Below, in pieces: positions 23,253 through 57,185 of a stretch of 60,237 nucleotides of DNA. The stretch is from IMG/VR virus record IMGVR_UViG_3300025571_000003, positions 1 to 60,237 of that record; one strand, 5' to 3'. Each line of letters opens with the position of its first letter. The stretch's first letter is position 1. The position numbers and the translations under genes were made by a program. The stretch is from a virus (taxonomy: Duplodnaviria; Caudoviricetes). The notes below the pieces were generated by a model. It saw nothing but the letters and a program-made list of their open reading frames with translations. It ran no database searches and had not been told where the DNA came from.

Positions 23253-23327
23253 TGGTGCTGATGAGTGGGATCGAACCACCGACCTTCCCCTTACCAAGGG
23301 GATGCACTACCACTGTGCTACATCAGC
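23253..23327 (-). tRNA. tRNA-Thr(GGT)
   Basis: GCTGATG acceptor, anticodon arm TCCCC-TTGGTAA-GGGGA, GTTCGATC T-loop, encoded CCA. Confidence 0.95.
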
Positions 23328-23334
23328 ATTACAA

Positions 23335-23409
23335 TGGTGCTGGATGAGGGATTTGAACCCCCGACCTGTCGCTTACAAGGCGACTGCACTACCGCTGTGC
23401 TAATCCAGC
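23335..23409 (-). tRNA. tRNA-Thr(TGT)
   Basis: GCTGGAT acceptor, anticodon arm GTCGC-CTTGTAA-GCGAC, GTTCAAATC T-loop, encoded CCA. Confidence 0.95.
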
Positions 23410-26978: not shown

Positions 26979-27062
26979 GGTCTATGGGGACGAGACCCCA
27001 GACCCCAAGGCTTGGGGCGGCCATTCGTTTCCACCCCCTCCGCCATGGCCGCCCCGCTTTTT
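26979..27062 (+). ncRNA. candidate small RNA, two hairpins, C-rich anti-SD loop, U-tail
   Basis: Promoter, hairpin GGTC..TGGGG/CCCCAGACC, 11-bp stem GGGGCGGCCAT/ATGGCCGCCCC with loop TCGTTTCCACCCCCTCCGCC, then TTTTT. Confidence 0.6.
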
Positions 27063-27943
27063 CACCTGTATTTCTCGATCAGCAGTTCCAGGTCGCGCAG
27101 AAGCGCCTCGTTCCCTCGGTTCTTGGCGATAACCTTGTCGAGTGACCCGTAGTGGTGCTCCAGGCACCGCAAGAGCAAGTCCTTCACGATCTGCTCGTCA
27201 GGCCTTTCCCGAAGAGTCGAGCGCACATAAATATCCTCAAGTTGACGCTCCTTCTCGCTCGCCCAGGCTTGAAGATGTTCTAGTGTCCATTCTCCGCGCC
27301 GGATCGCCTTCAGAACCTCCCGGTCACGCTCCAGATCGAGATCATGGGTCGTCATAATCTGCTCAGCTTCGAGCAGAAGGCGAACGCAGTGGTAAGCAAA
27401 TTTCGTGTCGTATCCATGCTTTTCTATATCAGCGGCCCTCGAATTTGAGGGGTTTCGCTTGTTGACGATTTTCGACATCTGCGCGTGTGCGTAAGCGCGC
27501 ATCTTGTAATGGCAAGCTTTAGACAAAAAGAGCTTTCGGTTTTCCCGCACAATCTCAGCGACAGGTGTCGAATGCACAACGCAGCGTCGAGGTGTGAAAA
27601 GCGAGTCTATCAGGTTCGGGTTGTTTTCCAGACACAGGTGGAAAAACTTCACTATACTGTATACAACGAAGTCATATAGCTGATTTGAATCGGGCGATTG
27701 GACTCTGTGCTCCTGCCACTGCTCAAAACGCGGAATTTGTCGCCCAAATCCCGGAATCTCTCCTCGCAGATGGGGGAAGACCATATCGAGAGGAGGCATG
27801 GCGAAACCATACAGGTCCATATCCGAACTGTCTGAGGACACGCCATATGCCATCGACCCCATGATCGTCAGGTAGACGGTATTATTGGGAAGCCATGCAG
27901 GGGGATGAATTGCCCGCGCTTTCTGCAACTTTTGAAGTAACAT
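27062..27943 (-). CDS. Pol-beta-like nucleotidyltransferase (RlaP/YcgL-type)
   Basis: GS.AYG....SD.D.YG, NNPN.ID.LF, YDTK.AYH.VRLL, L.AIRRG motifs. Confidence 0.85.
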   Translation of the reverse strand: MLLQKLQKARAIHPPAWLPNNTVYLTIMGSMAYGVSSDSSDMDLYGFAMPPLDMVFPHLRGEIPGFGRQIPRFEQWQEHRVQSPDSNQLYDFVVYSIVKFFHLCLENNPNLIDSLFTPRRCVVHSTPVAEIVRENRKLFLSKACHYKMRAYAHAQMSKIVNKRNPSNSRAADIEKHGYDTKFAYHCVRLLLEAEQIMTTHDLDLERDREVLKAIRRGEWTLEHLQAWASEKERQLEDIYVRSTLRERPDEQIVKDLLLRCLEHHYGSLDKVIAKNRGNEALLRDLELLIEKYR

Positions 27944-28061
27944 ATGAATTTTCACTCCAATATATGCTATCGTACCAGCGCTCGAAATAATTGCAATAAT
28001 TTCATCTGCGATGTGCGTACCTAAGGCAGTTTCAACAAAGCTCGTAAGAACGCTGAAGACA

Positions 28062-28607
28062 ATGGACCCCGAGACGCCGGTTACCGTATTCACGGTGCAA
28101 AGCCCCGCCGCGCTGAGGTGTGCCGAGAGCCTCGGTTACTGGCACGGAAGCCGTGACTTTATCGAGGATGAGGACTTCCGGGATGCATACCTCTGGATGC
28201 GGGACCAGATGGCAGAACGAATTTCATTTTTCAGCGGCGACTACCCGATCTGGGCAACGCTGCATCGGCCAAATTTCCGCAAACTGCGGAAGTGGGCCGA
28301 ACCCCAGGTTCTCGTGAAGGCGAGGGTTCCTCGTGGGCGCATCCTGCTGTCGGACTATGACGACTGGCACAGTGTGCTCAACCGGTTCATCGCGACCCAC
28401 GACGAGAAAGAGGCGGATCAGTGGTGGGAGCTCCCCGAGACGGAGAAGCTTGCCAACCTCCACTGGGAGCGCATCCTTGACCTCGACTGGGTTATTGAAA
28501 ACGGAAGGAAGCCGCGCCTACAGGCTTGTGTGGACCGCATCTATGCACATGAGGTCGAGCGCATCACCTTCGTCAACGGCCGCCGCAGGTACTGTCACGC
28601 AGCCTGA
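28062..28607 (+). CDS. DUF3841-like protein
   Basis: TVQ, F..AY.WM..QM..R, YPIWA, LLSDY..WH.VLN, W.RI.D, LQA motifs. Confidence 0.7.
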   Translation: MDPETPVTVFTVQSPAALRCAESLGYWHGSRDFIEDEDFRDAYLWMRDQMAERISFFSGDYPIWATLHRPNFRKLRKWAEPQVLVKARVPRGRILLSDYDDWHSVLNRFIATHDEKEADQWWELPETEKLANLHWERILDLDWVIENGRKPRLQACVDRIYAHEVERITFVNGRRRYCHAA

Positions 28608-29041
28608 TCGAGGAGGAAGGCTCCACCGACGGCGGCCTGCTCGACAACCATGAATGCCTCCCAGTAGTGGTCGGTCGAGACGACCTGATCCGGGTTTTCT
28701 GTGTCGAGGACTTCAAACCGGCCGTTTGGTGTCAGGCTCGGGCCACGAATGATGAAGCGACCCGAACGGCTCTCCCAACAGTCCGTTTGACGCTGGATCA
28801 TGTCCGTGTCTGGGCTATCGAAAATATTGGCAGGACGCTCAATATCTCCGATCCACGCTATGGCGTCCTTGGGGGAAACCTCACACTTGGCGATGATCTC
28901 CAGGTGTCGCCATTTCCTTCTGTAGTAGGATCTAATTATTCTCGACCGAGTGTTGGACGAACCGTCGCTCGACAAATGAAAAAGAAGATCAACGAAGCAT
29001 TTCTTGATATCGGTATCGATCACGAAACCCCCAGAAATCAA
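28595..29041 (-). CDS. hypothetical protein
   Basis: ORF with a TTGACG promoter-like element upstream. Start uncertain. Confidence 0.45.
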   Translation of the reverse strand: MISGGFVIDTDIKKCFVDLLFHLSSDGSSNTRSRIIRSYYRRKWRHLEIIAKCEVSPKDAIAWIGDIERPANIFDSPDTDMIQRQTDCWESRSGRFIIRGPSLTPNGRFEVLDTENPDQVVSTDHYWEAFMVVEQAAVGGAFLLDQAA

Positions 29042-29109
29042 CGGTGTAGCAAAAGGCTACTACGGTTTCTGAATTCGTCAAACTTAAAGTGAAGGGTTTC
29101 GCAAGGATA

Positions 29110-30072
29110 AAAAAAGAGCGCCGAGCAGTTCTGTCGGAGGAGCGTCAAAGTTCAGAGAACTGATACCAGCCTGAGATTACAGCTGGTGCAGCCGGGCTTC
29201 CGGAGGTATCCCGCCACTTGCGGTGGGGGTTTTCCGGGCATCCACGAGACGGGCGTGACCCTCGCCTCGTACCCAACCAGTGTCGCCGTTCTGCTCCTCT
29301 TGCGAGAAGCACGAGTGGCAGGTCTCGTGTCACCGTATGCTACTCGACGGTTCCGACGCCACCGACCTTGCGGGCCGTTCGCAGGAGCTACCCCGCTATG
29401 ACACCTTCTCCATCAACATCGGATCGGCTTGCGGCCTCCCCAATGTCCCGGTTCTCTAGCGAGCCGGGAATTAGACACCTTTCACACACGGCCGGGGCAG
29501 ACTTTGCGTTTTTCAAGTGATATTATAGTGCAACAGCCACATAACGAACAAACCTACCGAGACGCGCTGCCCCCGTTGCTCCATCCTCCTTTCGGAGGAC
29601 GAAATACAACACGCCTCATGTCTTTCTCCTTGCGGGATACTCGACGGATATTTCGGACGCTTCCCCCATCAGGGACCGCGCCCTCATATCTGTCACGCTG
29701 CACTTGGCTGCGGGCCTCGCACTACGTGACCACCCGTTGACCATACGTCTATTGTGGGTTCGCATGCTGGTGCCCGGTTGCGAGACGGGCTTCGCGGTGC
29801 CCCCGCTTATCTGCTGCCAACAGACCAACACCCACCGTTCGACCTATCTCCCTCATCGGAAGACCCCTGGTGGCTCAGGGGAGGTCCGAGCCTCCGTGGA
29901 TGCACCATCCGAGGATGGCGGGGCTATGTAGGCTTCACCCCTTTGACGCGAGTTGCCTCGCGCTGCGCTGACGACGCCACGGCGCCAAACACGCTCGATC
30001 CAATCGGATGCATATGCATTCAACGGGACCGAAACTCGACGATCATCAGAGGGCGGCGCCCTCATCGATCAT
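29110..30072 (-). ncRNA. giant ornate noncoding RNA, GOLLD-like (about 960 nt)
   Basis: No credible ORF. Many GCAA/GAAA tetraloop hairpins on -. Own promoter. Terminal ACCAGC-TGTAATCTCAG-GCTGGT hairpin. 9-bp 5'-3' complementarity. U7 tract at the end. Confidence 0.8.
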
Positions 30073-30078
30073 GTAGAC

Positions 30079-30107
30079 ACAGTATCCAAACTCGCTTCCG
30101 ATGTCAA
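30079..30107 (-). promoter_or_regulatory. sigma70 promoter of the giant RNA
   Basis: TTGACA-17 nt-TACTGT on the minus strand. Confidence 0.75.
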
Positions 30108-30162
30108 CAAAAAATCGTACACGAAATACGAAATATGTGGCGGCGAGGGGAAACGACGGAAC

Positions 30163-31752
30163 TTAAAGGGAAAACCAGCGACCTTGAGAAGTGCCGACAA
30201 CCGTCAAGGTACTTCCGCGAGACAGCAGGATTGGGACATCAGTCGATGAGAAATCAATTCGCTCGCCAGAAGCCGGAAAAACGTTGATATCAGTCTGGGC
30301 GTCGTTGATGACGACCATGAATGCGCCGGGGATGGATCGCGGAAGACGAACGGCGCAGTCGCTTGCACTGGCGACGGAGACGATGTTTACCGACGCGGAC
30401 AGCGGCTGGGCAAAGTCCTGGTTGTTTCCCGTGGCCTCAACGTTCTCGGCGATGGTGTGCTGGATGATGCCAGTCAGGACACCACCAGAGGCGGGCAGGG
30501 CGCCAATGTCCTTCGGCTTCACCATCATGGTGGTCGCCATGGTCACATCGTCCGACCCGTCGAAGGTCGCTTCCCCCTCAACCGCTCCCCTCAGACGAAT
30601 ACGCTTCGGTGCTTCGAGCCTGCGTGCATACGGGGCAACGGCATCGGAAGAGAACGATGTCTGGAGCGTTACATTGCTGCTGCCGTCGATGATCGCAGAA
30701 CCCAGGATGTCTCCCTGAAGCTGGAATGCGCGCGGTGTCCTCCAGCGTTGGCTAGTCTCTGCGGTCCCCTCCAGGTCGCCGACAAATGGTCCACGGACAG
30801 TCCCGTCCTGATCCCGCAGGACCACATCAGGGGTCAAGGAAAGCATGATCGTGCCTCCGTTCGGGCCGGATGAGCTGACTGACAGCCCGCCGCCAGCGGT
30901 CGTGATGTCTCCCACGTAGGAGCCGATGGTGTCCTCGCCGAGACGGATGGCGCCCATGGATGTCTCGATCTTCACGTCATCGGCGCCGTCAAACGTTCCC
31001 TTTCCGGTCACCGCCCCCGTCAGGGTAATCGCCACCGGGTGCTCAAGGCGGGATGCCGAGGATGCTACGCCGTCGAGCTGACCCGCTATCCGTTCAGCGC
31101 GAAGTTCGACTAGTTCGGCTGTTTCGGCCGCAACTCGCGAAAGGCGTGCCTCCGAAGCCTCGAACGACCTGGCGGTCAGGTTCTCGATGTCAGCAACCGA
31201 ACCGCCCTTGAATGACCACCGCTCTGTGGAGGCATCCCATACGAGACTGGCGATGGACCCGGTTCCGCGAACGATTTTCATTCCTGCATCGGAGACGCAG
31301 GGGGTATCAGTCCCGGAATGCAGCTGGATGAAAGCTTCTCCGAGGTCGATCTGCGCCCGCTGGACCGTCCGGAGTGTACCACGGACATTGAGATCACCGT
31401 CGATGGTCAGGCTTCCATTCACGCTTACCCGGTCATCGGAGAGGGTCACGACCGTGCTGGACGCCCTGTCCTGAACACCGACCGGCCTGTCGGCAATCTC
31501 CTGCCAGCGATAGACGGGTTTCTGAGAGGCCCGGAGACGGCCGTTTTCGTCGAGGGAAGCAACGCCGTTAGCTGTCCCTATGAGCGTTTGTGGAATCGCG
31601 CCGACCTGAGCAGCCGTCACACGGTGCGGATTGTTTTCATCCTCGGCGTGCCCGAAAAGTTCGGCGAAGTTGTCGTTAATCTTCCTGCTTGCGTCGCGAA
31701 GGGTGTCACCAGAGTTGGTGGCATCACCTATCTTGAGAAACTTTCTGGCCAT
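30163..31752 (-). CDS. tail fibre / virion fibre protein
   Basis: N-terminal IG...N.GD.LR.A..KIN.NF.EL anchor, NPH.VT..QVG, three L.G.V.G...FDG..DV repeats. TAAATA at 31778-31783. Confidence 0.75.
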   Translation of the reverse strand: MARKFLKIGDATNSGDTLRDASRKINDNFAELFGHAEDENNPHRVTAAQVGAIPQTLIGTANGVASLDENGRLRASQKPVYRWQEIADRPVGVQDRASSTVVTLSDDRVSVNGSLTIDGDLNVRGTLRTVQRAQIDLGEAFIQLHSGTDTPCVSDAGMKIVRGTGSIASLVWDASTERWSFKGGSVADIENLTARSFEASEARLSRVAAETAELVELRAERIAGQLDGVASSASRLEHPVAITLTGAVTGKGTFDGADDVKIETSMGAIRLGEDTIGSYVGDITTAGGGLSVSSSGPNGGTIMLSLTPDVVLRDQDGTVRGPFVGDLEGTAETSQRWRTPRAFQLQGDILGSAIIDGSSNVTLQTSFSSDAVAPYARRLEAPKRIRLRGAVEGEATFDGSDDVTMATTMMVKPKDIGALPASGGVLTGIIQHTIAENVEATGNNQDFAQPLSASVNIVSVASASDCAVRLPRSIPGAFMVVINDAQTDINVFPASGERIDFSSTDVPILLSRGSTLTVVGTSQGRWFSL

Positions 31753-31833
31753 GTCCGTTGATCATAAAGACCGGACATATTTATCAGCCAGATATGATTT
31801 GGCCTGCGGCAGGTGCCGCAGGCCTCTTGGACA

Positions 31834-32016
31834 TTAAATGATGAAGTCCTCTCGGGCGGCGTTGTCCGCCTCCTCACGTGACCGGAAGGGACCCTGAGGT
31901 TCTCCGAGCACGACCTTTCCGGCATAGAGCTGGTAGTACCAACCAGCGTCCTCCTCCTGCTCCTGGGAAGAGGCAACGATCTCGAACGTCTCGACGCGCG
32001 GAAGGATAGCCATCAT
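31834..32016 (-). CDS. hypothetical protein
   Basis: GGAG RBS. GWYY...GPF.S.EEA..AA motif. Confidence 0.65.
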   Translation of the reverse strand: MMAILPRVETFEIVASSQEQEEDAGWYYQLYAGKVVLGEPQGPFRSREEADNAAREDFII

Positions 32017-32083
32017 GTAAGGACTCCGTTTGAAATATTTTGAGAGAATACGGGAGGGCAGAAAATGTCACCTCCCGGAAGAA

Positions 32084-33733
32084 TCAGTACCCATACATAT
32101 TCAGATGGGTCTGGAAAATCAAGTTCTCAGTGAAGTTAAGGCCATTGCAAAGCGCTCTATTCACTGCCCCAATCTGAAGAGTGGTCGTGAAGCGCCACGG
32201 GATTACCTCGCCATTACGCTCATAGGGCTTCATCATGAGCGTATCGGGGAACAGATGGGAGATGTCGAACGGCTCGTCGAACGTCGTCTCGTGCTTGTCG
32301 AACCAGGCGCGGGGCACGACCGCCACGAGGCACTTTCCGTCCCTGAACGGGGTCGAGCACATGTAGAACTCTTCCCCCTTCCACGTCTTGCGGTTCTCTT
32401 CCTTCTGCTCGTCGGTGAGGGCATCCCACTGCGCGCGGTCATTCCATGGACGGATGAGGCGATCCATCCCGACCGGGTTCTTGGTCAGAAGACCCTGCAT
32501 CAACTCGACGAGGTTGTCCTCGCTGCTCTGCGCGCCGCTGGCATCCACCTTGGATCGCTCGCAGACCATCCCGGCCTCCTCAAGCACCTTCGTGATACGG
32601 TCAGCGAAGCGCTCAAGGACGCAGGCCATCCAGCAGCCCCTCACGCTGTCGCGTGCCTTGGCGACGTACTTGTCGAAGTCGATGCCATCCTTTTCGAGGA
32701 GGGGGCGCACCTCGTCGAGCTTCCAATCCCGGACGAGGACCTTGTAGTACAGCTCGACGAGGCTATCCCTCGCGATGGCGATGTTGTCGCCGTTCTCGTC
32801 AAGAACGACGGCGTCGTCGGGCTCCGCGATGCGCTTGTACTTCATCTCCAGCTCCTGCTGGAGCGCATCGTCGTGCTTGAAGCCGACTTCGGCCAAGAAG
32901 CCGCGAATGAAGGCCTCTGAGGGGCAGTTCTCGAAGGCATAGAGGCCGGTGCCGTCAATTGACGCTTCGAGATCGACGAAGTAGTCGTCGATAAGGCCAA
33001 GATTGACCTCGTCAACGTTTCCATCGTCGATCGTCTTCACCTGAACATAGACGAGCGGATGTCCTGCCGTGTTCACCGTCGTCACCGTGGCGAACTTGTA
33101 GGGCGAGCCGTCGAACTTGGTTGGGTCGAAGTCGTCCCTGCCATCGAAGGCGTGGCGATCGCGCTTGAAGACGTGAGCGTCAACCAGCACCTTGCCGTCC
33201 GGAGTGATCTTCACGTTGACCCTCGAAATACCGAGGATCGAGTCGCTATTCTGCTCGGCGGCTTGCTCCTCGGAAAGCCTGCCCTCGCGCTTGGCCTGCT
33301 CGTACTCTTCCTTGGCGCGCGCCTCCTCGTACTCTGCTTCGGCCCGCTGTTCCTCTGTCATCTGCGACTTGGGGTCATACAGGCCGTGAATTTCGCCGAT
33401 AGGGCGCTCGTCAGCCAGGGACTGGCGGACGCGATGCGCCTCCATCATTTCGTCGGCACGCTTGACGATCATCCCATCGGAAAGAAGCTTGACGTTGAAC
33501 TTCTCGATAAAAGACTGGCGCTGCGCAGCGTCAGTATGCGTTACGATGAGAGGCGTACGCTTCAGCTTGGAAAAGACAGGGTCAAAGAGAACTTCCTCAA
33601 AAGATGCGAATTCGGCCGATACGCACAGCGGAAGGTCGGTCGAAACATCCTGAATGAAGGAAGACAATTCATCGAGATCGGAGGCGGCGGCAATCACCGT
33701 CTTGGCTTCGTCCCTCAAAAACCCATAGATCAT
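32084..33733 (-). CDS. hypothetical protein (549 aa)
   Basis: GGAGG RBS, strong phage codon bias. Confidence 0.8.
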   Translation of the reverse strand: MIYGFLRDEAKTVIAAASDLDELSSFIQDVSTDLPLCVSAEFASFEEVLFDPVFSKLKRTPLIVTHTDAAQRQSFIEKFNVKLLSDGMIVKRADEMMEAHRVRQSLADERPIGEIHGLYDPKSQMTEEQRAEAEYEEARAKEEYEQAKREGRLSEEQAAEQNSDSILGISRVNVKITPDGKVLVDAHVFKRDRHAFDGRDDFDPTKFDGSPYKFATVTTVNTAGHPLVYVQVKTIDDGNVDEVNLGLIDDYFVDLEASIDGTGLYAFENCPSEAFIRGFLAEVGFKHDDALQQELEMKYKRIAEPDDAVVLDENGDNIAIARDSLVELYYKVLVRDWKLDEVRPLLEKDGIDFDKYVAKARDSVRGCWMACVLERFADRITKVLEEAGMVCERSKVDASGAQSSEDNLVELMQGLLTKNPVGMDRLIRPWNDRAQWDALTDEQKEENRKTWKGEEFYMCSTPFRDGKCLVAVVPRAWFDKHETTFDEPFDISHLFPDTLMMKPYERNGEVIPWRFTTTLQIGAVNRALCNGLNFTENLIFQTHLNMYGY

Positions 33734-33766
33734 AAAATGCCTCCAAGAGGATGACTTGTAGGCCGA

Positions 33767-34231
33767 CTATGTAATCTGGCTTTCGACGAAACGCAAGGAA
33801 ATTTCGTTGTCAGAATTTATCAGGTTGAGGACATTAAGAAAATATCCACCAGGTATCAGAGGTCCGCCAATGGTCGGTGGTGTAGTGGGCTCCGTGAACG
33901 CATCATACACAGTAACGGCGCCAGCGGGATGACGATCAGGGTGCCAAAACGAAAGAGTAGGAGGAGAATAGAATACGGTCATTCCGATCGGCTCGCGAGA
34001 AATCCACGCACGCAGTGAATGATCCTGCTGTCGCCCTACAGGTATCGCATGCATGTCGCAGATCGTCACAGCCTTTCCGGGGCAAAGATGAAATGGAAAG
34101 CATACAGCATGCCCTGGCAATAGACGGACGTTGCACACGTTTAACGGCGTGCCTGCGACGGTGTACGGGTAGATCGGCTGTCCGGGGTTGCGAATATACG
34201 GTACGGGGTCGGTAATACGGCAATTGCTCAT
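33767..34231 (-). CDS. hypothetical protein, likely virion-associated
   Basis: GAGGAG RBS, in a late-promoter unit. Confidence 0.6.
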   Translation of the reverse strand: MSNCRITDPVPYIRNPGQPIYPYTVAGTPLNVCNVRLLPGHAVCFPFHLCPGKAVTICDMHAIPVGRQQDHSLRAWISREPIGMTVFYSPPTLSFWHPDRHPAGAVTVYDAFTEPTTPPTIGGPLIPGGYFLNVLNLINSDNEISLRFVESQIT

Positions 34232-35054: not shown

Positions 35055-35573
35055 TCATGCGTCGAACACGTGGATCGTGTCGAGGTTATCGCTCGGACGG
35101 ACATGAATGATAGACTGAAATTCGTCGAGACTGGGCTCTTCGAAATTAGCCTTCATGCGCTCAATAACCGCAGATGAAATGTACTTTCCGGTGCGATCAC
35201 CGCGATCTTTAATGCGCTTGTACAGAAGAGCGTCGTCGCAATGGAACATGACTCCGACGATTTTGTAGTCGCGGGGAACCTGCGAAAGGAATGACGCGCG
35301 CGTCTTCTTCGACATGTTGGTGCGGTCGATGATGATCGACTTTCTTTCGGCGATGGCCTTACGGAAGTCGGCCCGCGCCTGCTTGGCGAAATCGTGCAGA
35401 GGAGCGATCTTGAAGGCCTCGTTGTACGTAATATTGTTCTGCCAGGCGAAGTTGTCGATCATGTCGTCCTGCGAAATGACGACGAATTCCTCATCGGAGC
35501 TGGCGATCGTGTTCTCGCGCCACGTCGTCTTGCCGGAGCCGGGAAGTCCAATGAGCATGTAAACGGTAGGCAT
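35055..35573 (-). CDS. P-loop kinase, polynucleotide kinase-like (AAA_33)
   Basis: GLPGSGKTTW, IS.D, IID.TN....R, R..R, P...E.F motifs. Confidence 0.85.
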   Translation of the reverse strand: MPTVYMLIGLPGSGKTTWRENTIASSDEEFVVISQDDMIDNFAWQNNITYNEAFKIAPLHDFAKQARADFRKAIAERKSIIIDRTNMSKKTRASFLSQVPRDYKIVGVMFHCDDALLYKRIKDRGDRTGKYISSAVIERMKANFEEPSLDEFQSIIHVRPSDNLDTIHVFDA

Positions 35574-35779
35574 GAAATGTCTCCAAATATGCCAATATGA
35601 ATACGCCGAAACGACTTCTGAGGATGGCCTTCCGAAAGGCAAAGCGAAATCGGATTATTCGGGAATGACTGCCGTCGTCAAACGGATTAAGTATACAACG
35701 GCTATATATGGTTTGCGAAGCAAATTTTGTTTGACGAAATCAGATCCCGATCTACAACGGTCGAGGAAGGGAGGCTCGA

Positions 35780-43221: not shown

Positions 43222-44592
43222 TCAAAGCTTTTCGCCGGGTACGGTGCCGCGAAAGCCCCGAAAGCGCGGGAAGCGCAGGGAATGGACGCTGGCGCCCTGC
43301 TCAAGCGTCAGTGCATCGGCCCTGATTTCCACGATCATTCCAAGATAGGCTTCCTTGTTGCGCCAGATTTGATCGCGCAGCTCGTCGGTGAGGCCAGACC
43401 CGACATTGGTTTCAATTTCGACATCCATGTCATGGCCGCGACAGACGAGGGCACCAAGAGTACCTGCATACTTTCCGTCTGGATCGCCCTCTTCGAAGCC
43501 AACAATCGATAACGACACCTCAATGAAGGGCTTTTTCTTCAACCAGTGCGGACGGCGTCTTCCCGGCTCATAGGGAGCGTCCGGGTCTTTGTACATGACC
43601 GCCTCATGAAATCCTGCACGAATTGCTTCTTCTGTCAGACGCGCAGCTTCCTGTCGGCCTTCCTCGGTGTCCAGATCAACGAGGACCTTGGGCAACACGA
43701 AGACACGGCCATCCGTCTCCTTCTGAAGAAGGCCGCTGACCTCCAACTCAACAAGCATCTTGTGCCGATCCATCTGAGAGATGGGACAGTACCCGGCCAT
43801 GAAATCGGAAAGTGGAATGATATCAAACAGCGCGAGGCGGCAGGTCGAGGTGTCGAGATCGGTGGTACGGCTGATCTGCTGCATCAATTCCTGAAAAGAA
43901 CCGGCAACGACTTCGCCATCAAGAACCACCGAACCGGGCAGGTGAGGGATGATCCTCTCAAGGCCCTGCCTGATTTCAGTGAAGCGGTCGTTGGGTGAGC
44001 CGTTGCGTCCGGTGAGCTGGGTGACCACCCCGGATTCCTTGTCGAGGATGCTGAGCAGGCGGACGCCATCGAGCTTGGTGTCGATGAGTTTCTTCCCCTT
44101 GAGGAGCTTGGCGTTCCTGCCGGAACCGTCCTCGGCGAGCTGGGCTGTGAGGACGGGGATCATGAATTGCTTCGCGTCTGGGTCATTCTTGGCAATGGGG
44201 CCAAGGATGCTGTTATAGGTTTTGGCCTCCACTCCGATCCGGAGGTCCTTGCGAAGGATGCGGCGGTAGAAGTCATTCCACATCCCAATGTGGCAACGAC
44301 AGGCAGCGTCGAGGATGGCTTCCCTGGCGGCGTTTCCGGTCAGTTCGCGACGCCTGAGCTTCTCTGCCAGAGCCAGGAAATCCTCGAACGTGAAAGTACC
44401 GGGGTCGTTTTCGTCACCTTCCTCGATGAATGGAACCTTCTGGACGCCGAAAGTGATGAGGGGGTCATACGCAAGACGGCATGCGTAGAAGAACTCCCGG
44501 TTACCTGCGTGGTAGGCTTCTGTGATCAGCTCGGCCTTTGCGTTGCGACTATTCGTGGATTCGAGACTATGAATCAAATCAATGGTTTGCAT
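43222..44592 (-). CDS. ATP-dependent DNA ligase
   Basis: KLDGVR motif I, LDGE, LFD, Y...R...WLK.K, GSG, SLRFPRF. Confidence 0.95.
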   Translation of the reverse strand: MQTIDLIHSLESTNSRNAKAELITEAYHAGNREFFYACRLAYDPLITFGVQKVPFIEEGDENDPGTFTFEDFLALAEKLRRRELTGNAAREAILDAACRCHIGMWNDFYRRILRKDLRIGVEAKTYNSILGPIAKNDPDAKQFMIPVLTAQLAEDGSGRNAKLLKGKKLIDTKLDGVRLLSILDKESGVVTQLTGRNGSPNDRFTEIRQGLERIIPHLPGSVVLDGEVVAGSFQELMQQISRTTDLDTSTCRLALFDIIPLSDFMAGYCPISQMDRHKMLVELEVSGLLQKETDGRVFVLPKVLVDLDTEEGRQEAARLTEEAIRAGFHEAVMYKDPDAPYEPGRRRPHWLKKKPFIEVSLSIVGFEEGDPDGKYAGTLGALVCRGHDMDVEIETNVGSGLTDELRDQIWRNKEAYLGMIVEIRADALTLEQGASVHSLRFPRFRGFRGTVPGEKL

Positions 44593-51807: not shown

Positions 51808-54800
51808 TCACCACTTGAAGATGATGGCGCAATGAGCACGCTGGCCGAGACCGGCCCCCGCTCCGGTGTCCTCCATACGGAGCTGGATTGTGTAGTCCGT
51901 GAACTCCGTCATAAAGGTCGGGTTGTCGGCCGTGCCTCCACCAGAGAACTTCGTGGTGGCAAAAAGACCAGTCACGACGTTCTTGTAGATGAACTGGTTC
52001 GTCTGGTAGTGCTGGCCCATGACAGCAATGGAGGACGGCGGACGCGTCTTGCCCGTGAAGTTGAACTTCACGATGCAGTTGTCGCCATCGAGGACTTCGA
52101 CTTCGACGCCAGGAGTCTTCGACTTGACATTGTCTCCGCTGCTGAAGTTGCCGGACGCTCCAGGAGAGTAACGGAAGACGACGATTTCCTCGTTGGAGTC
52201 GCCACCAGGGATGTTGACGGTCGCCACCCCGCTCTCGTTCGTGACGGTCACACCGGGACCGGTGAAGTTGATGGCTGTTGGAGCCGCAACGACCTGGGTG
52301 CCGTCCTTCTCGACCGGGGTGGAAGCGCCACCGGAGCCACCGGCAGCCGCGATGGTGATCTCATCGGCGGTCTCGGAGATCGTAACGTTGGCACCTGCCC
52401 GGATCGTCTTGAACCGGAGATCGGCACCCACCTTCTCGGAGAAGACATGACCCTCGCCGGAACCGACGTTGGACGCCGTGGTGGTCTCGCCAGCCTCGGG
52501 GGCGTCGATCCAGGCGAATCCAGTACCGGTTTCATTCATCGCCATGACCTGGCCCGCCAAACCAAGGGGGATGGCATCCTGCTTGGTGGAGAGAGCCGAG
52601 GTCAGCTCGGGATGCGTCACAAAGTCAGAGTCGTCCACCAGATCACTGATGGCGCCGGGGATCATCGGCTTGTCCGTGAGGTCGTTGTACGAGCCGCTTG
52701 TGGCAACCGGCGCAAGACCAGTGATGTCCGAGGCCGAGGCCTGTTCGCCAGCGATCACGCGGCCGTGGGCATCGACCATGACCTTGCTGTAGCTACCAGC
52801 CGACACGCCGGTCTCTGACAGGGCGATAGAGAATGTGCCGCTCTCGGTGACCGGCGAGCCCGTGATGACGAAGTCGCTCGTGCCGACAAGACCGACAGAG
52901 GTGACCGTGCCAGAGCCACCACCGCTGACCGGGGCGCCGTTCGACGCCGAGGTGATGCGGCCGAACTCGTCAACCGTGATGGTGGCATAGGAGTAGGTTC
53001 CGGCGACGACGCCAGTTTCCTCAAGTTCGGTGTTGATCTGAACGTCCTGCGAGCCATCGAACGTGACGGAGCCAGACACTGGACCGGCGAGCGTGATGGT
53101 GTGGGCCGTCGTGAGCTTTTCGGCCTCGCTCGCCGTGCCAGCCAGTTTGCCGTAGAAGGTGTCAGCCTCCACGTCACCGAGGACGAGCGAGCCTTCCTCT
53201 CCCACGTATGAGCCCCAGCGGTTGTTGTTCGTATTGTAGAACCAGTTGGCGGTAAGGCTCTCAGTCGGAACCTGCATACCGATGAAATCGGTCTCCTCGC
53301 CGGTGACAGTCAGAAGACCGTTGACGACCGTATCGTCGTTGAAGGTCTTCTTGCCGTTGACAATCTGATCCGTTGTCAGATCGACGTAGTCATTTGGCAT
53401 GATCGGCTTGTTGATGAGGTCGTTGTAATCACCCGAGAACGCGATATCTGCGAAGTTGAGCTTCTCTCCAGCGGTGACACGACCCTTGGCATCAACCACA
53501 ACCGAATTGTACTCGCCGGGGACAACGCCGGTGTCGGTCAGCGCCAGGCCAATTGTGCCGTTCTCTGTGATAGGCGAACCTGTGACCTCGATGTCGGCTG
53601 ACCCCTCGACAGCGATAGAGGTGACCGTGCCCGCACCAGCCGTGTTGCTGGAAATGGCCGTAACGCGTCCCGTCTCATCGACAGTGACAGTCGCATAGTG
53701 ATACTCACCGGGTGTGACGCCGGAGGCACTGGCCTTGATCCTGATCTGGTCGGCTTCCTCAGTGATGTCGATGCCGTCTCCAGCAACGAGGCTGCGCAGC
53801 TTGATCTCGCCCGCTTCAGTCTCCTTGTAGACGCCAGCACCGGAGCCGACGTTGACGAAAACGTCCGAGGTGGCCGTCCCGGTGGACGCAGCGATGACGC
53901 GACCATGGGCATCGACCGTGATGGTCGCATTCGTGTAGGTACCAGCCGCGACTCCGGTCTCGTCGAGCGAGACCGTCACAACATCGGTTCCCTGCGTGAC
54001 GACAACGCCGTTGTTGCCGTCGATCGAGCGGAAGTTGAACTCTTCGCCGGTCTTGTCGCGATAGACGTGGGCACCCGAGCCGACGTTCTTGGCTGTGACC
54101 GGGCTGGAGGAGATTGCGGTGATACGACCGAACTCATCGACTGTGACAACCGCAGACGAATAGGTACCAGCGCTGACGCCGGTCGTTTCGAGGCCGATCA
54201 CGAACTGGCCGCTATCGACAATCGGGCCACCGGATACGGTAATGCCGTTTTCACCGACAGCATCGACCATCGTAACCGTGCCGTTGCCAGGCTGAGAGGC
54301 ACCGGGGACAAGGCCAACGATGCGACCGAACTCGTCGATGGTGATGGAGGCAGGCGAGTAGCTACCAGCCGTGACACCAGACGGGGCAAGGGCAACGTTC
54401 ACGACACCGCCATCGGTCGTGACGGCGATACCTTCGCCAGCCTCGATCGCAGTGATGGCGTCAGAGCTGATCACGACCTCGTCCGTACCCTGGGTGACAG
54501 TGACGGCACCCTCGCCACGGAGGCTGCGGACCTGGAGCGTGGTTCCGACCTTTCCCTTGTAGATGCTCGCGCCGGTGCCGACCGAGGACAGTGTGTTGGC
54601 CTCTCCGAGCACGTTCGAGGTGATCGAGGTGATACGACCGGTCGAGTCAACGAAGATGGTCGGAGCCGTGTAGGTACCTGGGGTGATACCAGTATCTGAC
54701 AGGCGGACAATGAATTCACCGGTGGAGGTGATCGGGCCACCGGTCGCGATGATGCCGTTCTGACCGCTGATGCCGATGCTGGTGACGGCGTTGCCGCTCA

Positions 54801-57147
54801 GAATGATCTCGTTGTCATTGGAGGTGACGGTGACAACGCCCGAGCCACGGATGCTCTTGAAGCGGAGACCGTCGCCCAGCACGTCCTTGAACACGCCATG
54901 ACCGGCGCCGAGGTTGATACCGCCAGAGACAGTTGAGCCGCTGAGACCGATGGTGACGTTGTCGTTGCCGTCGGTCGTGACCGAGAACTTGTCGTCGAAT
55001 GTGATCGACTTCACGCTCTCCGAAACCGCGTTGATGGCGTGAGCCGAAAAGATGGCCGGGTTGAGAGCCGTGATGACGACCTCATCGACTTCTTCGCCCT
55101 GCGCAACTGTCGCATTCGACACCTTGATGGTGTTCACGCCTTCGATGGACGTGGAGCCATCAGTGACAGCGAGCCTCGACGGAGGATCGATAGTGATGAC
55201 GGCACCGCCATTTGGGGCCTCCTCGACCGTCGCACCCACGATGTCGAGGTAGTTGACCTCTGTGGCGACTTCCGTGCCATTCGAGAGAACCGAGAGAGGC
55301 GAGGGGACCTCGATGTCGATGGAGACGCGACCGGCTCCATCAACGGTCAGGCTGCCATTGGTGAAGGTGATCTCGCGGGCAGACGCCAGGGCGCCGTCCT
55401 TGTCGCGGACCCGCATCTCAGGGATGTTGACCACCGCCTTGCGGTCGTCTCCATCCGGGTGGGTGACATCAACGTTGCCGGTGAAGACGAAGTCCTTGGC
55501 GTTCTGGACGACAGCGCCGTTCTCGTCATGGACGGCAATGGGGTCTGCGACGCCAGGCGCCAGCGAAATATCGACTGTCCCGGCGACGGCAGAGTTGACC
55601 GCGAACTGGTTGCCGAAGCGGATTTCGGCCGTGCCATTGAACTGCTGCGGGACATCGACGTTGTCCTCGTTGAAGCCGGACACGGAGAGAGGCGAAGTAG
55701 CCTCGATGGTGATGGTGTTGTCGTCCTCGGTGATGGTGATGTTGTCACCGGCGACGATGGAGCGGAACTCAAGAACGTCACCCGTCTTGCCAGCGTAGAC
55801 TCCCGCGCCGTTGCCCAGGTTGTTGCCCGTGTTGACCTCGCCTACCGAGCCGTTCGAGGCGGCAATAATGCGGCCCTGCTCGTCAACAGTGATGGTGGCA
55901 GCGGTGTAGGTTCCGGCGACAACACCAGTGTCGCTCAAGGAAATGTCGAACGTACCGGAGTTGGTTATCGGGCCGCCCGTGACGACGACACCCTTGCTAC
56001 CAACGGCGTTCACGCTGGACACATATGGCGTGGACGAGATGACCACCTCACTCGGGGTCGAGGTGATCTGGATGCCACCAGAGCCGACAATGGTTTTGAA
56101 GCGAAGATCGGTTCCTTCCTTGCGGGCGAAGAGACCTTCGCCGATGCCGATATTGGACGCGGTATTGGCCTCACCCCACGGCTCCATCGAGGCGGCGACG
56201 ACACGGCCGAACTCGTCAACCTGCACGAAGTTGTAGGAACCGGCGGCAACGCCGGTCGGCGCAAGGGCAATGTTGTAGGAGCCGGACGAAGTAATGGGCG
56301 TTCCTGACAGGGAGATACCTGGACCTGCCGTCAGCTCGACATGTGTGACTGCATCGGCGCGGATGGTGATCTCGTCATCTGTCGAGGAAATCGTGGCGAC
56401 ACCCTCGGCCTTGATCGTCTTGAACTGGAAATCAACTCCGTCCTTCTTGGCGAAGACGGGCTCTCCGTCGCCGAGGTTGGAGGCAGTATTCGTCTCGCCG
56501 ACCGGAGTGGACGAGGCAGAGGTGATACGACCCGTGGAATCAACGGTGATCGTCGCGGCGGTGTAGGTACCGGGAGTGACGCCAGTATCGATGAGCGAGA
56601 CCGTGACGGTTCCGGTCTCGGTGATCGGGGCGCCGGTGGCGAGGATTCCGTTCTCACCGACGACATTGACGGAACGGACCGTACCCTGGGAGATCGTCCG
56701 CCACTCCAGGTTCACGCCGTTAAAGACGAGTACGGAGTTCTGGACGGTCGGGGCATAGAGGAACTCAAGACGGCCGTCATGGGTACCCATGAGCAGGCCA
56801 TTTCCGACGATGCGATCCGGCGCCTCGGAGAGTTGCAGGAAAGACATCGTCTGGGTGTTGGAATTAGAGATGATGGTGATCGTATCGAGGTCCTCGATGA
56901 ACTCGATACCAGGACCGGCGATAAGCGAGCGGAACTCCAGAACCACGTCCGAAGAGCCGTTGACGCCGGAATAGAGACCAGAGCCCGTGCCGATATTGCG
57001 ACCCTGCACGGTCATGACACCGTATTGCGGCTGCGTCGTAGTGGAGGACTGACCCGACCCAGCGACAACGCCGGTGTTGATCTCCTCTCCCTTGAGGTAA
57101 ACCTTACCTGTTCCTTCCTGGACGCGCCCGTTCTCAATGCTTGGCAT
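51808..57147 (-). CDS. giant repetitive fibre protein (about 1780 aa)
   Basis: 11 copies of (T/S)G(V/I)..G.Y....(V/I)D..GR and about 9 copies of N.G.G..(F/Y)....L.F(K/R)(S/T)I. TAAATA at 57175. Confidence 0.85.
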   Translation of the reverse strand: MPSIENGRVQEGTGKVYLKGEEINTGVVAGSGQSSTTTQPQYGVMTVQGRNIGTGSGLYSGVNGSSDVVLEFRSLIAGPGIEFIEDLDTITIISNSNTQTMSFLQLSEAPDRIVGNGLLMGTHDGRLEFLYAPTVQNSVLVFNGVNLEWRTISQGTVRSVNVVGENGILATGAPITETGTVTVSLIDTGVTPGTYTAATITVDSTGRITSASSTPVGETNTASNLGDGEPVFAKKDGVDFQFKTIKAEGVATISSTDDEITIRADAVTHVELTAGPGISLSGTPITSSGSYNIALAPTGVAAGSYNFVQVDEFGRVVAASMEPWGEANTASNIGIGEGLFARKEGTDLRFKTIVGSGGIQITSTPSEVVISSTPYVSSVNAVGSKGVVVTGGPITNSGTFDISLSDTGVVAGTYTAATITVDEQGRIIAASNGSVGEVNTGNNLGNGAGVYAGKTGDVLEFRSIVAGDNITITEDDNTITIEATSPLSVSGFNEDNVDVPQQFNGTAEIRFGNQFAVNSAVAGTVDISLAPGVADPIAVHDENGAVVQNAKDFVFTGNVDVTHPDGDDRKAVVNIPEMRVRDKDGALASAREITFTNGSLTVDGAGRVSIDIEVPSPLSVLSNGTEVATEVNYLDIVGATVEEAPNGGAVITIDPPSRLAVTDGSTSIEGVNTIKVSNATVAQGEEVDEVVITALNPAIFSAHAINAVSESVKSITFDDKFSVTTDGNDNVTIGLSGSTVSGGINLGAGHGVFKDVLGDGLRFKSIRGSGVVTVTSNDNEIILSGNAVTSIGISGQNGIIATGGPITSTGEFIVRLSDTGITPGTYTAPTIFVDSTGRITSITSNVLGEANTLSSVGTGASIYKGKVGTTLQVRSLRGEGAVTVTQGTDEVVISSDAITAIEAGEGIAVTTDGGVVNVALAPSGVTAGSYSPASITIDEFGRIVGLVPGASQPGNGTVTMVDAVGENGITVSGGPIVDSGQFVIGLETTGVSAGTYSSAVVTVDEFGRITAISSSPVTAKNVGSGAHVYRDKTGEEFNFRSIDGNNGVVVTQGTDVVTVSLDETGVAAGTYTNATITVDAHGRVIAASTGTATSDVFVNVGSGAGVYKETEAGEIKLRSLVAGDGIDITEEADQIRIKASASGVTPGEYHYATVTVDETGRVTAISSNTAGAGTVTSIAVEGSADIEVTGSPITENGTIGLALTDTGVVPGEYNSVVVDAKGRVTAGEKLNFADIAFSGDYNDLINKPIMPNDYVDLTTDQIVNGKKTFNDDTVVNGLLTVTGEETDFIGMQVPTESLTANWFYNTNNNRWGSYVGEEGSLVLGDVEADTFYGKLAGTASEAEKLTTAHTITLAGPVSGSVTFDGSQDVQINTELEETGVVAGTYSYATITVDEFGRITSASNGAPVSGGGSGTVTSVGLVGTSDFVITGSPVTESGTFSIALSETGVSAGSYSKVMVDAHGRVIAGEQASASDITGLAPVATSGSYNDLTDKPMIPGAISDLVDDSDFVTHPELTSALSTKQDAIPLGLAGQVMAMNETGTGFAWIDAPEAGETTTASNVGSGEGHVFSEKVGADLRFKTIRAGANVTISETADEITIAAAGGSGGASTPVEKDGTQVVAAPTAINFTGPGVTVTNESGVATVNIPGGDSNEEIVVFRYSPGASGNFSSGDNVKSKTPGVEVEVLDGDNCIVKFNFTGKTRPPSSIAVMGQHYQTNQFIYKNVVTGLFATTKFSGGGTADNPTFMTEFTDYTIQLRMEDTGAGAGLGQRAHCAIIFKW

Positions 57148-57185
57148 AGCAATCACCCCAAAAATAGTTTGAGGTATTTATCGGG

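Follow-up and report, generated by a model that had tools for sequence, protein, structure and literature searches.

A GOLLD RNA gene with two structured domains in a genome fragment of a jumbo phage

Results

A complete GOLLD RNA on the minus strand

The virus record IMGVR_UViG_3300025571_000003, a 60,237-nt stretch of DNA that we analyzed over its whole length and call the window, very probably carries a jumbo-phage gene for a GOLLD RNA; the RNA has two structured domains, and the gene forms a stand-alone transcription unit. The RNA is encoded on the minus strand, and its features are given below on that strand in window positions. Membership in the GOLLD family is close to certain. The Rfam covariance model of the family, RF02032, matched 29617-29168 (-) with 181.1 bits (gathering score 150; E 2.5e-49), the match was complete (model positions 1-416 of 416), and the matched sequence has a GC content of 0.60. 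A permissive Rfam search of 28900-30300 at E≤1 returned GOLLD alone and no ROOL, and the ROOL model had no match at its gathering score in the whole 60-kb window, where the only other Rfam matches were two tRNA genes.

The locus had been singled out in a preliminary description, made from the DNA letters without database searches, as a GC-rich, GOLLD-like RNA of about 960 nt that Rfam models of GOLLD and ROOL should recognize in full unless it were a new subtype or class. The full-length match above the gathering score and the absence of ROOL bear out the family, and the GC content of the match bears out the composition. The idea of a new subtype or class falls away, as the Rfam match is complete rather than partial and the 5′ domain is common to 26 other GOLLD loci (see below). 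The proposed length holds if a leader and a tail are counted, whereas the conserved RNA measures about 820 nt.

This latter figure arises because the Rfam model spans the 3′ domain only, and a match to a separate profile of the 5′ domain adjoins it upstream. Together they define a conserved RNA at 29987-29168 (-), with a 5′ domain of ~370 nt and a 3′ domain of ~450 nt. About 820 nt is the usual size of GOLLD RNAs (PMC12286853).

The 5′ domain is shared with GOLLD loci of other viruses and metagenomes

Relatives of the window RNA were collected by several routes. The first set comprised five records reached via early matches, all five of which carry GOLLD above the Rfam cut-off. A 19-base pattern specific to the subfamily located 12 viral, 36 metagenome and 8 species-genome loci. 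Rfam confirmed 7 of the 17 loci tested, the viral loci L133 and L135 having no Rfam match, and nhmmer confirmed 27 of the 36 metagenome loci; the nine without an nhmmer match were dropped. None of the eight species-genome loci is GOLLD by Rfam, so they offer no prophage clue to the host. A 14-mer scan yielded 120 loci, 121 with L122, and an nhmmer match to the window RNA was found in seven; the remaining loci, which had no such match, were rejected as chance. Named phages were searched with blastn, and 19 records matched, none of them covering at least 80% of the query. Eighteen matches to Caulobacter phages were at most 110 nt long and lay in or beside tRNA annotations, and their identity as GOLLD is not established. 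Duplicates were dropped before alignment (L119, L146, L149, L159, L161, L163, L165, L172, L176, L002, which equals L126, and L112, which equals L125), and L147, L164 and L168 have no detectable 5′ domain or too little upstream sequence.

The 5′-domain profile was built by iterated nhmmer from the region upstream of the Rfam match and has 366 positions. Among 30 non-duplicate sequences it matched 27, namely the window and 26 other GOLLD loci. In the window it covers 29987-29616 (-) and abuts the Rfam match. RNAalifold on alignment A1, which holds 21 distinct sequences, predicted 70 base pairs, and compensatory double changes, one or more per pair, occur at 59 of these; under different settings it predicted 89 pairs, 70 of which are canonical in the window. 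Against L124, a classical AT-rich GOLLD that scores 299.8 bits with the Rfam model, the profile aligned over only 48 positions (12.7 bits), and it did not match L164. These weak or missing matches agree with the published view of the 5′ domain as the less conserved half of GOLLD (PMC12286853).

Helices, linker and junction motifs of the RNA

Every motif listed in the preliminary description was found on the minus strand where it had been placed. Two GNRA-capped hairpins, CGCGAG-GCAA-CUCGCG (29962-29947) and UCCC-GCAA-GGA (29637-29627), are covarying helices of A1, and two others, UCCUCC-GAAA-GGAGGA (29599-29584) and GGCC-GCAA-GCC (29436-29426), are helices of the Rfam model. CCACC-GCAA-GUGG (29226-29214) is treated as an insertion by Rfam, although its CGCAAG loop letters align across most of alignment A2. 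The proposed 3′ hairpin ACCAGC-UGUAAUCUCAG-GCUGGU lies at 29187-29165; it is a helix of the Rfam model and forms its 3′ end. Its GUAAUCUCAG loop letters are invariant in the 21 sequences of A2, and its stem covaries.

One hairpin is lineage-specific. CUUCUC-GCAA-GAGGAG (29309-29294) is inserted in the 3′ domain, where the 20 other rows of A2 lack it and carry an A-rich strand instead; the Rfam alignment shows this region as a 22-nt insertion against 4 nt in the consensus. An analogous GCAA hairpin was seen only in the GC-rich fragment L164.

A variable linker of 59 nt (29559-29501) connects the two domains; in A2 it has conserved GGUAGGUU at its start and AAAAACGCAAAG at its end. A 7-bp helix outside the Rfam structure line closes it, with GGGGCAG (29573-29567) as the 5′ strand and CUGCCCC (29500-29494) as the 3′ strand. 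In the alignment 99.3% of 147 cells of this helix are paired and five of the seven pairs show compensatory changes; none of 500 shuffles was as good, and slid controls were 24-46% paired. The pairing of these two heptamers, noticed beforehand in the single sequence, is a real covarying helix. ARAGORN found no tRNA in the window linker, but it did call real ones in those of L129 and L136. By eye, the linkers of L123, L125, L126, L127 and L164 contain tRNA-like T-arm sequences; ARAGORN called no tRNA in the first four of these, L164 lying outside the scan. From their sequences, such linkers look like decayed embedded tRNAs.

The 10-mer CCGUCGAGUA occurs twice, at 29647-29638 and 29350-29341, and had been described as a duplication. 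Both copies are where they were reported, but the reading as a repeat was rejected: each copy ends in the GAGUA of a junction that relatives have too (GGUUGAGUAG in A1, GGUCGAAUAG in A2), and the two are instances of one junction motif that occurs in both domains of relatives. We take this motif to be possibly loop-E-like.

Two further pairings were observed in the 3′ domain. GGUGUC (29479-29474) and GACACU (29284-29279) can form a 6-bp long-range helix, in which each pair is conserved in 90% or more of the sequences and two covary; it is absent from the Rfam structure line shown and may be a known GOLLD tertiary pairing. Within 29329-29285, inspection by eye suggested an H-type pseudoknot formed by CACGAG (29329-29324) with CUCGUG (29315-29310) and by the loop GCC with GGC (29287-29285). 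The first stem covaries in relatives (5 bp, four covarying pairs), and the extra GCAA hairpin of the window stands in place of their A-rich third strand.

Promoter, leader and 3′ tail

A candidate promoter precedes the RNA. The -35 hexamer TTGACA (30107-30102) is perfect (6/6) and aligns with TTGACA of L125, L126 and L128-L131; it is followed after a 17-nt spacer by the -10 hexamer TACTGT (30084-30079), and the predicted start is near 30072. The whole element lines up with TTGACA-17-TATAAT-like sites of relatives, and matches of at least 9/12 with a 17-nt spacer within 160 nt upstream of the core were found in 11 of 19 evaluable loci, the window included. A scan with the sigma-70 consensus and for terminators called neither a promoter nor a terminator at the ends of the RNA. 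We retained the promoter because of the perfect -35 hexamer and the alignment with the sites of relatives, and its use by the RNA is likely. Of the earlier proposal that the RNA has its own promoter, the site and its position where relatives have strong sites stand, whereas its -10 element and the outcome of the scan do not favor it.

The start would be followed by a variable leader of 85 nt (30072-29988) with two stable hairpins. Its folding energy is -35 kcal/mol (z -2.73), a value reached by 2 of 200 shuffles, and it is unalignable to relatives, in which the distance from the -10 element to the core ranges from 11 to 104 nt.

Downstream of the core, a 3′ tail (29164-29109) ends in the U7 tract reported before (29115-29109) and is a probable weak terminator. 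The tail folds at -8.6 kcal/mol (z +0.53), with a weak imperfect hairpin before U7. In the window the T-run starts 56 nt after the terminal loop, as against 28-31 nt, with a GC hairpin, in five stand-alone relatives. What had been taken for an extra 3′ extension of the RNA amounts to no more than a lengthened, weakly folding spacer from the terminal hairpin to U7. Loci inside tRNA arrays mostly have neither promoter nor terminator.

The RNA is represented in RNA libraries

The stretch is present in 20 listed runs of 16 studies; seven of these runs are possibly the source sample, and six are recorded as RNA. Four RNA runs from four studies were compared over 27000-32500, and contigs cover the RNA in all four. 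The cover runs from 29188 to 30051 in a bioreactor run (X16), from 29186 to 29975 in a manure run (X17), over 29171-29495 and 29491-29963 in a soil run (X20), and from 28001 to 30062, as a single 2,069-nt contig, in a second bioreactor run (X10). The X10 and X16 contigs enter the leader, where they come as close as 10 and 21 nt to the predicted start. Those of X16, X17 and X20 end at or inside the terminal hairpin, 56-79 nt before U7, which is a weak hint about ends only. Outside the RNA, almost nothing of 27000-32500 is covered in these three runs, and 30063-30161 is uncovered in X10. As the runs were identified with this RNA and contigs drop rare sequence, the flanking gaps do not count as evidence that the transcript is discrete or abundant; the depths of the contigs (150, 30.3, 38.5 and ~8.6) are likewise unsuitable for ranking genes.

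Two natural variants were found. One is 29544 A>T in the linker, an allele shared with the near-identical contig L119, and the other is a 1-nt insertion in the lineage-specific hairpin 29309-29294 of a soil RNA contig. Both fall in the parts least constrained by comparison.

Phage context and flanking genes

The window is a linear virus record estimated by CheckV as 16% complete, which points to a full genome of several hundred kb. Genes of the window code for a family-B DNA polymerase, a DNA ligase, fibre-like proteins, an RlaP-type nucleotidyltransferase and a polynucleotide-kinase-like protein. The polymerase is 50% identical to that of Sinorhizobium phage Phosso (469 kb), 48% to that of Agrobacterium phage Atu_ph07 (490 kb) and ~43% to those of Rak2-like jumbo phages.

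As stated in the preliminary description, the RNA stands outside a tRNA cluster: the nearest tRNAs called by ARAGORN are tRNA-Thr(GGU) and tRNA-Thr(UGU) at 23253-23409, about 5.7 kb off. In a related viral contig, a manA RNA motif (RF01745, 59.3 bits, cut-off 55.2) at L136:5770-5941 shares a tRNA array with GOLLD.

Upstream, the minus-strand gene 30163-31752 encodes a tail-fibre-like structural protein that matches PHROG structural and tail-fibre families and has a weak match, below the cut-off, to the N-terminus of T4 gp9/10. Downstream lies a minus-strand open reading frame (ORF), 28595-29041, whose GC content by codon position (0.53/0.44/0.64) is coding-like and resembles that of the real genes of the window; it has no Pfam or PHROG match. 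The opposite-strand ORF 28667-29092 is flat by the same measure. Beyond them, a DUF3841 gene on the plus strand (28011-28607; Pfam E 7e-16) shares ~80 nt with the end of the minus-strand gene for the RlaP nucleotidyltransferase (27062-28093; Pfam E 4.4e-21) and is oriented convergently to the GOLLD unit. Together with RlaP, a polynucleotide-kinase-like protein (35055-35642, minus strand; phrog_505) and an ATP-dependent DNA ligase (43222-44592, minus strand) place genes of the RNA- or DNA-end-repair type around the RNA. Farther away, a minus-strand ORF of 1,782 aa (51808-57156) has repeated fibre-like PHROG matches and, judged by these, probably encodes a giant tail-fibre or decoration protein.

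Comparison with known GOLLD and ROOL RNAs

The cultured phage Phosso carries a GOLLD of its own (PV764938.1, 33533-34001 plus ~400 nt upstream), which scores 186.6 bits, above the Rfam cut-off. It is unannotated and falls in a featureless stretch of 1,046 nt (L122:2336-3381, ~33004-34049) between coding sequences 79 and 81, with no tRNA feature within 3 kb. Complete virus records of 457 kb and 480 kb also hold GOLLD above the cut-off. The whole record of Atu_ph07 (MF403008.1) has no GOLLD match despite its second-closest polymerase, so GOLLD is patchy in this group of jumbo phages. A literature search combining GOLLD and jumbo listed nothing on this topic, which is not meant as a claim that the association is unpublished.

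Phosso resembles the window in its 5′-domain type (183.9 bits to the profile), in belonging to a jumbo phage with the related polymerase noted above, and in its layout: the unit stands alone between protein genes, has a promoter and a terminator to itself and lies away from any tRNA array. The two differ in sequence, with ~71% identity over only 185 nt in blastn, and in their 3′ ends, since in Phosso the terminal hairpin is immediately followed by a canonical terminator. The Phosso linker contains a tRNA-like remnant, seen by eye and uncalled by ARAGORN. The flanking genes encode NAD kinase and ClpP in Phosso and the fibre-like protein and RlaP in the window.

Like the GOLLD family at large, the window RNA has a complete 3′ domain that includes the invariant terminal loop GUAAUCUCAG, loops of the GCAA type and the junction motifs GAAAG/GAGUA. 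Its 5′ domain, ~370 nt long, is structured, a variable linker is present, the total length is ~820 nt, and the RNA is carried by a phage, again as in the family. Structures have been described for the env-38 GOLLD, an 833-nt RNA forming a 14-mer cage, and for the Streptococcus agalactiae GOLLD, a 700-nt RNA forming a 12-mer (PMC12286853, PMC12990946). The window RNA stands apart in its GC content of 0.60, the absence of a tRNA in or next to it, the extra GCAA hairpin at 29309-29294, the replacement of two 5′-domain loops that hold GAAA in most relatives, the 85-nt leader and a longer 3′ tail.

GOLLD in GC-rich DNA was already known from mycobacteria (PMC6582537). These and other tRNA-array GOLLDs (Mycobacterium/Mycolicibacterium; L128-L131, L136) belong to the same family but lie among tens of arrayed tRNA genes; the linker often holds a tRNA or pseudo-tRNA, and a dedicated promoter or terminator is often lacking. 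The window RNA, by contrast, is solitary. ROOL is likewise a large phage-associated RNA that builds an RNA-only cage (PMC12286853), but its sequence and fold are different, and the permissive search around the locus found no Rfam family except GOLLD.

Discussion

The evidence describes an ordinary further GOLLD; nothing here alters the definition of the family, and a specialist would find no surprise in it. Several alternatives were weighed against this reading. That the region is protein-coding, or the remnant of a degenerate gene, is next to impossible. Plus-strand ORFs of 100-177 aa are present, but frames within the RNA (up to 71 aa on the minus and 177 aa on the plus strand) have a flat GC content by codon position, whereas the real genes of the window have GC3 well above GC2; none of six ORFs tested had a Pfam match above cut-off, and substitutions across 21 sequences preserve base pairs and no reading frame. 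The preliminary description was right that the locus holds no credible ORF. It is also highly improbable that this giant RNA merely resembles GOLLD and belongs to a new class or subtype. Such a class would fit the modest 181 bits beside the 299.8 bits of L124, the short 5′-profile match of L124 and the unmatched L164, and the lineage-specific loops and single inserted hairpin of the window. However, the full-length match exceeds a curated cut-off, variable 5′ domains are a stated property of GOLLD (PMC12286853; PMC12990946), and the 5′ domain of the window is common to loci that score 172-222 bits on RF02032.

Two further alternatives concern the ends of the RNA. In one, a 960-nt RNA would be closed end to end by the 9-mers GCGUCAAAG (29949-29941) and CUUUGACGC (29150-29142), and would be a variant of GOLLD in which the 3′ extension has a function. 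The 9-mers occur where they were reported and are perfectly complementary, and the tail that holds the second is kept in the near-identical copy L119 and covered by the X10 contig. Such complementarity is at chance level, however: the 963-nt RNA contains three complementary 9-mer pairs against a mean of 2.0 in dinucleotide shuffles, and at least one such pair occurs in 79% of 500 shuffles, or in 52% at a separation of at least 300 nt. The GCG of the 5′ partner is part of the covarying CGCGAG/CUCGCG stem, each of the 19 relatives examined in the 3′ flank lacks the tail that contains the 3′ partner, and this tail folds no better than shuffles. An unbiased covariation scan of 20 concatenated sequences gave 21 covarying stacks but no convincing helix between the 5′ and 3′ domains, the sole inter-domain stack being 4 bp long with one pair non-canonical in the window. 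In addition, the 5′ and 3′ domains are separate in the solved structure of GOLLD (PMC12286853). End-to-end pairing, a claim of the preliminary description, is thus very unlikely. The other two complementary 9-mer pairs (29903-29895 with 29246-29238 and 29640-29632 with 29214-29206) appeared by eye to be unconserved in A1 and A2 and were treated as chance. In the second alternative, transcription would pass the weak U7 site and continue into the ORF 28595-29041 and beyond, GOLLD would form the 5′ end of this longer transcript, and the discrete RNA would arise by processing just past the terminal hairpin. The single X10 contig spans 28001-30062, the contigs of the other three runs stop at 29188, 29186 and 29171 (a weak hint), the tail hairpin is weak, and the downstream ORF is coding-like and on the same strand. 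A contig across two genes, on the other hand, proves no single transcript, and neither ends nor strand can be read from contigs; because the DUF3841 gene lies there on the opposite strand, the X10 contig may merge convergent transcripts or derive from DNA. Five stand-alone relatives, moreover, end in canonical terminators. Overall, we consider read-through with processing unlikely, though less so than the other alternatives.

Returning to the GOLLD gene as a stand-alone unit with two structured domains, several observations count against this picture or blur it. The -10 hexamer matches TATAAT at only three of six letters and the consensus scan missed the promoter, so transcription might instead be driven by a promoter specific to the phage or come from the gene upstream by read-through. 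The terminator is weak by its fold (z +0.53), and one RNA-library contig continues to 28001. In the GOLLD family the RNA rises during phage lysis; contigs give no strand, ends, level or timing, and DNA can occur in RNA libraries. An association with tRNA clusters, frequent in GOLLD though not obligatory, is loose here, with no tRNA in the linker or adjacent. Finally, two 5′-domain hairpins carry other loops in the window: at 29825-29809 and 29881-29864, where 18 of 20 and 15 of 20 relatives have GAAA in the loop, the window has GUUGGCAGC and AGCCAC. One of these hairpins may correspond to the GAAA loop L11a, which is conserved according to the cryo-EM work. Through these replacements the contacts of the cap, and hence the oligomer state, may differ from those of relatives.

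The solved GOLLD RNAs form a protein-free closed cage in which the 3′ domains are the rings, the 5′ domains are the caps and the linker points inward (PMC12286853, PMC12990946). Subunit number varies among them, which a review attributes to secondary-structure elements (PMC12990946). By analogy, we favor the view, with some reserve, that the window RNA is cage-forming as well. In this model, transcription would begin near 30072 at the sigma-70-type promoter TTGACA-17-TACTGT with the 85-nt leader and would stop at the weak hairpin and U7 about 50 nt beyond the terminal GUAAUCUCAG hairpin. Copies of the RNA would then self-assemble without protein into a closed cage of perhaps 12-14 subunits, with rings made of 3′ domains, caps made of 5′ domains and the linker facing the inside. 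The best guess for its function is that the cage would hold or shield translation-related cargo, such as tRNAs or ribosomes, during lytic growth. These cargo ideas come from the published papers (PMC12286853, PMC12990946) and not from data presented here, and a translation- or tRNA-related role is a tentative and rather doubtful proposal.

A more far-reaching idea is that GOLLD in Phosso-like jumbo phages, solitary and free of tRNA, is a functionally distinct form. Such an RNA would be made as a precursor with leader and tail from its own promoter with a strong -35 element and trimmed to the ~820-nt core; with a cap that lacks the GAAA-holding loops and a ring with an added GCAA hairpin, it would have a stoichiometry unlike the solved 12- and 14-mers and form a long-lived particle. 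We regard this as distinctly unlikely, even a little more so than read-through. If it were true, the repeated recovery of the RNA in bioreactor, soil and manure RNA libraries would reflect a long-lived RNA particle and not ongoing transcription.

Few natural RNAs are known to assemble into cages without protein, and GOLLD is one of them. The present locus contributes an example that is GC-rich, solitary and tRNA-free, from a jumbo-phage lineage with Phosso as a cultured relative. Such a system is tractable, as the role of a cage without an attached tRNA could be approached in it by deletion. The natural swaps of 5′-domain loops and the inserted GCAA hairpin provide ready variants for studying the contacts that set the size of the cage.

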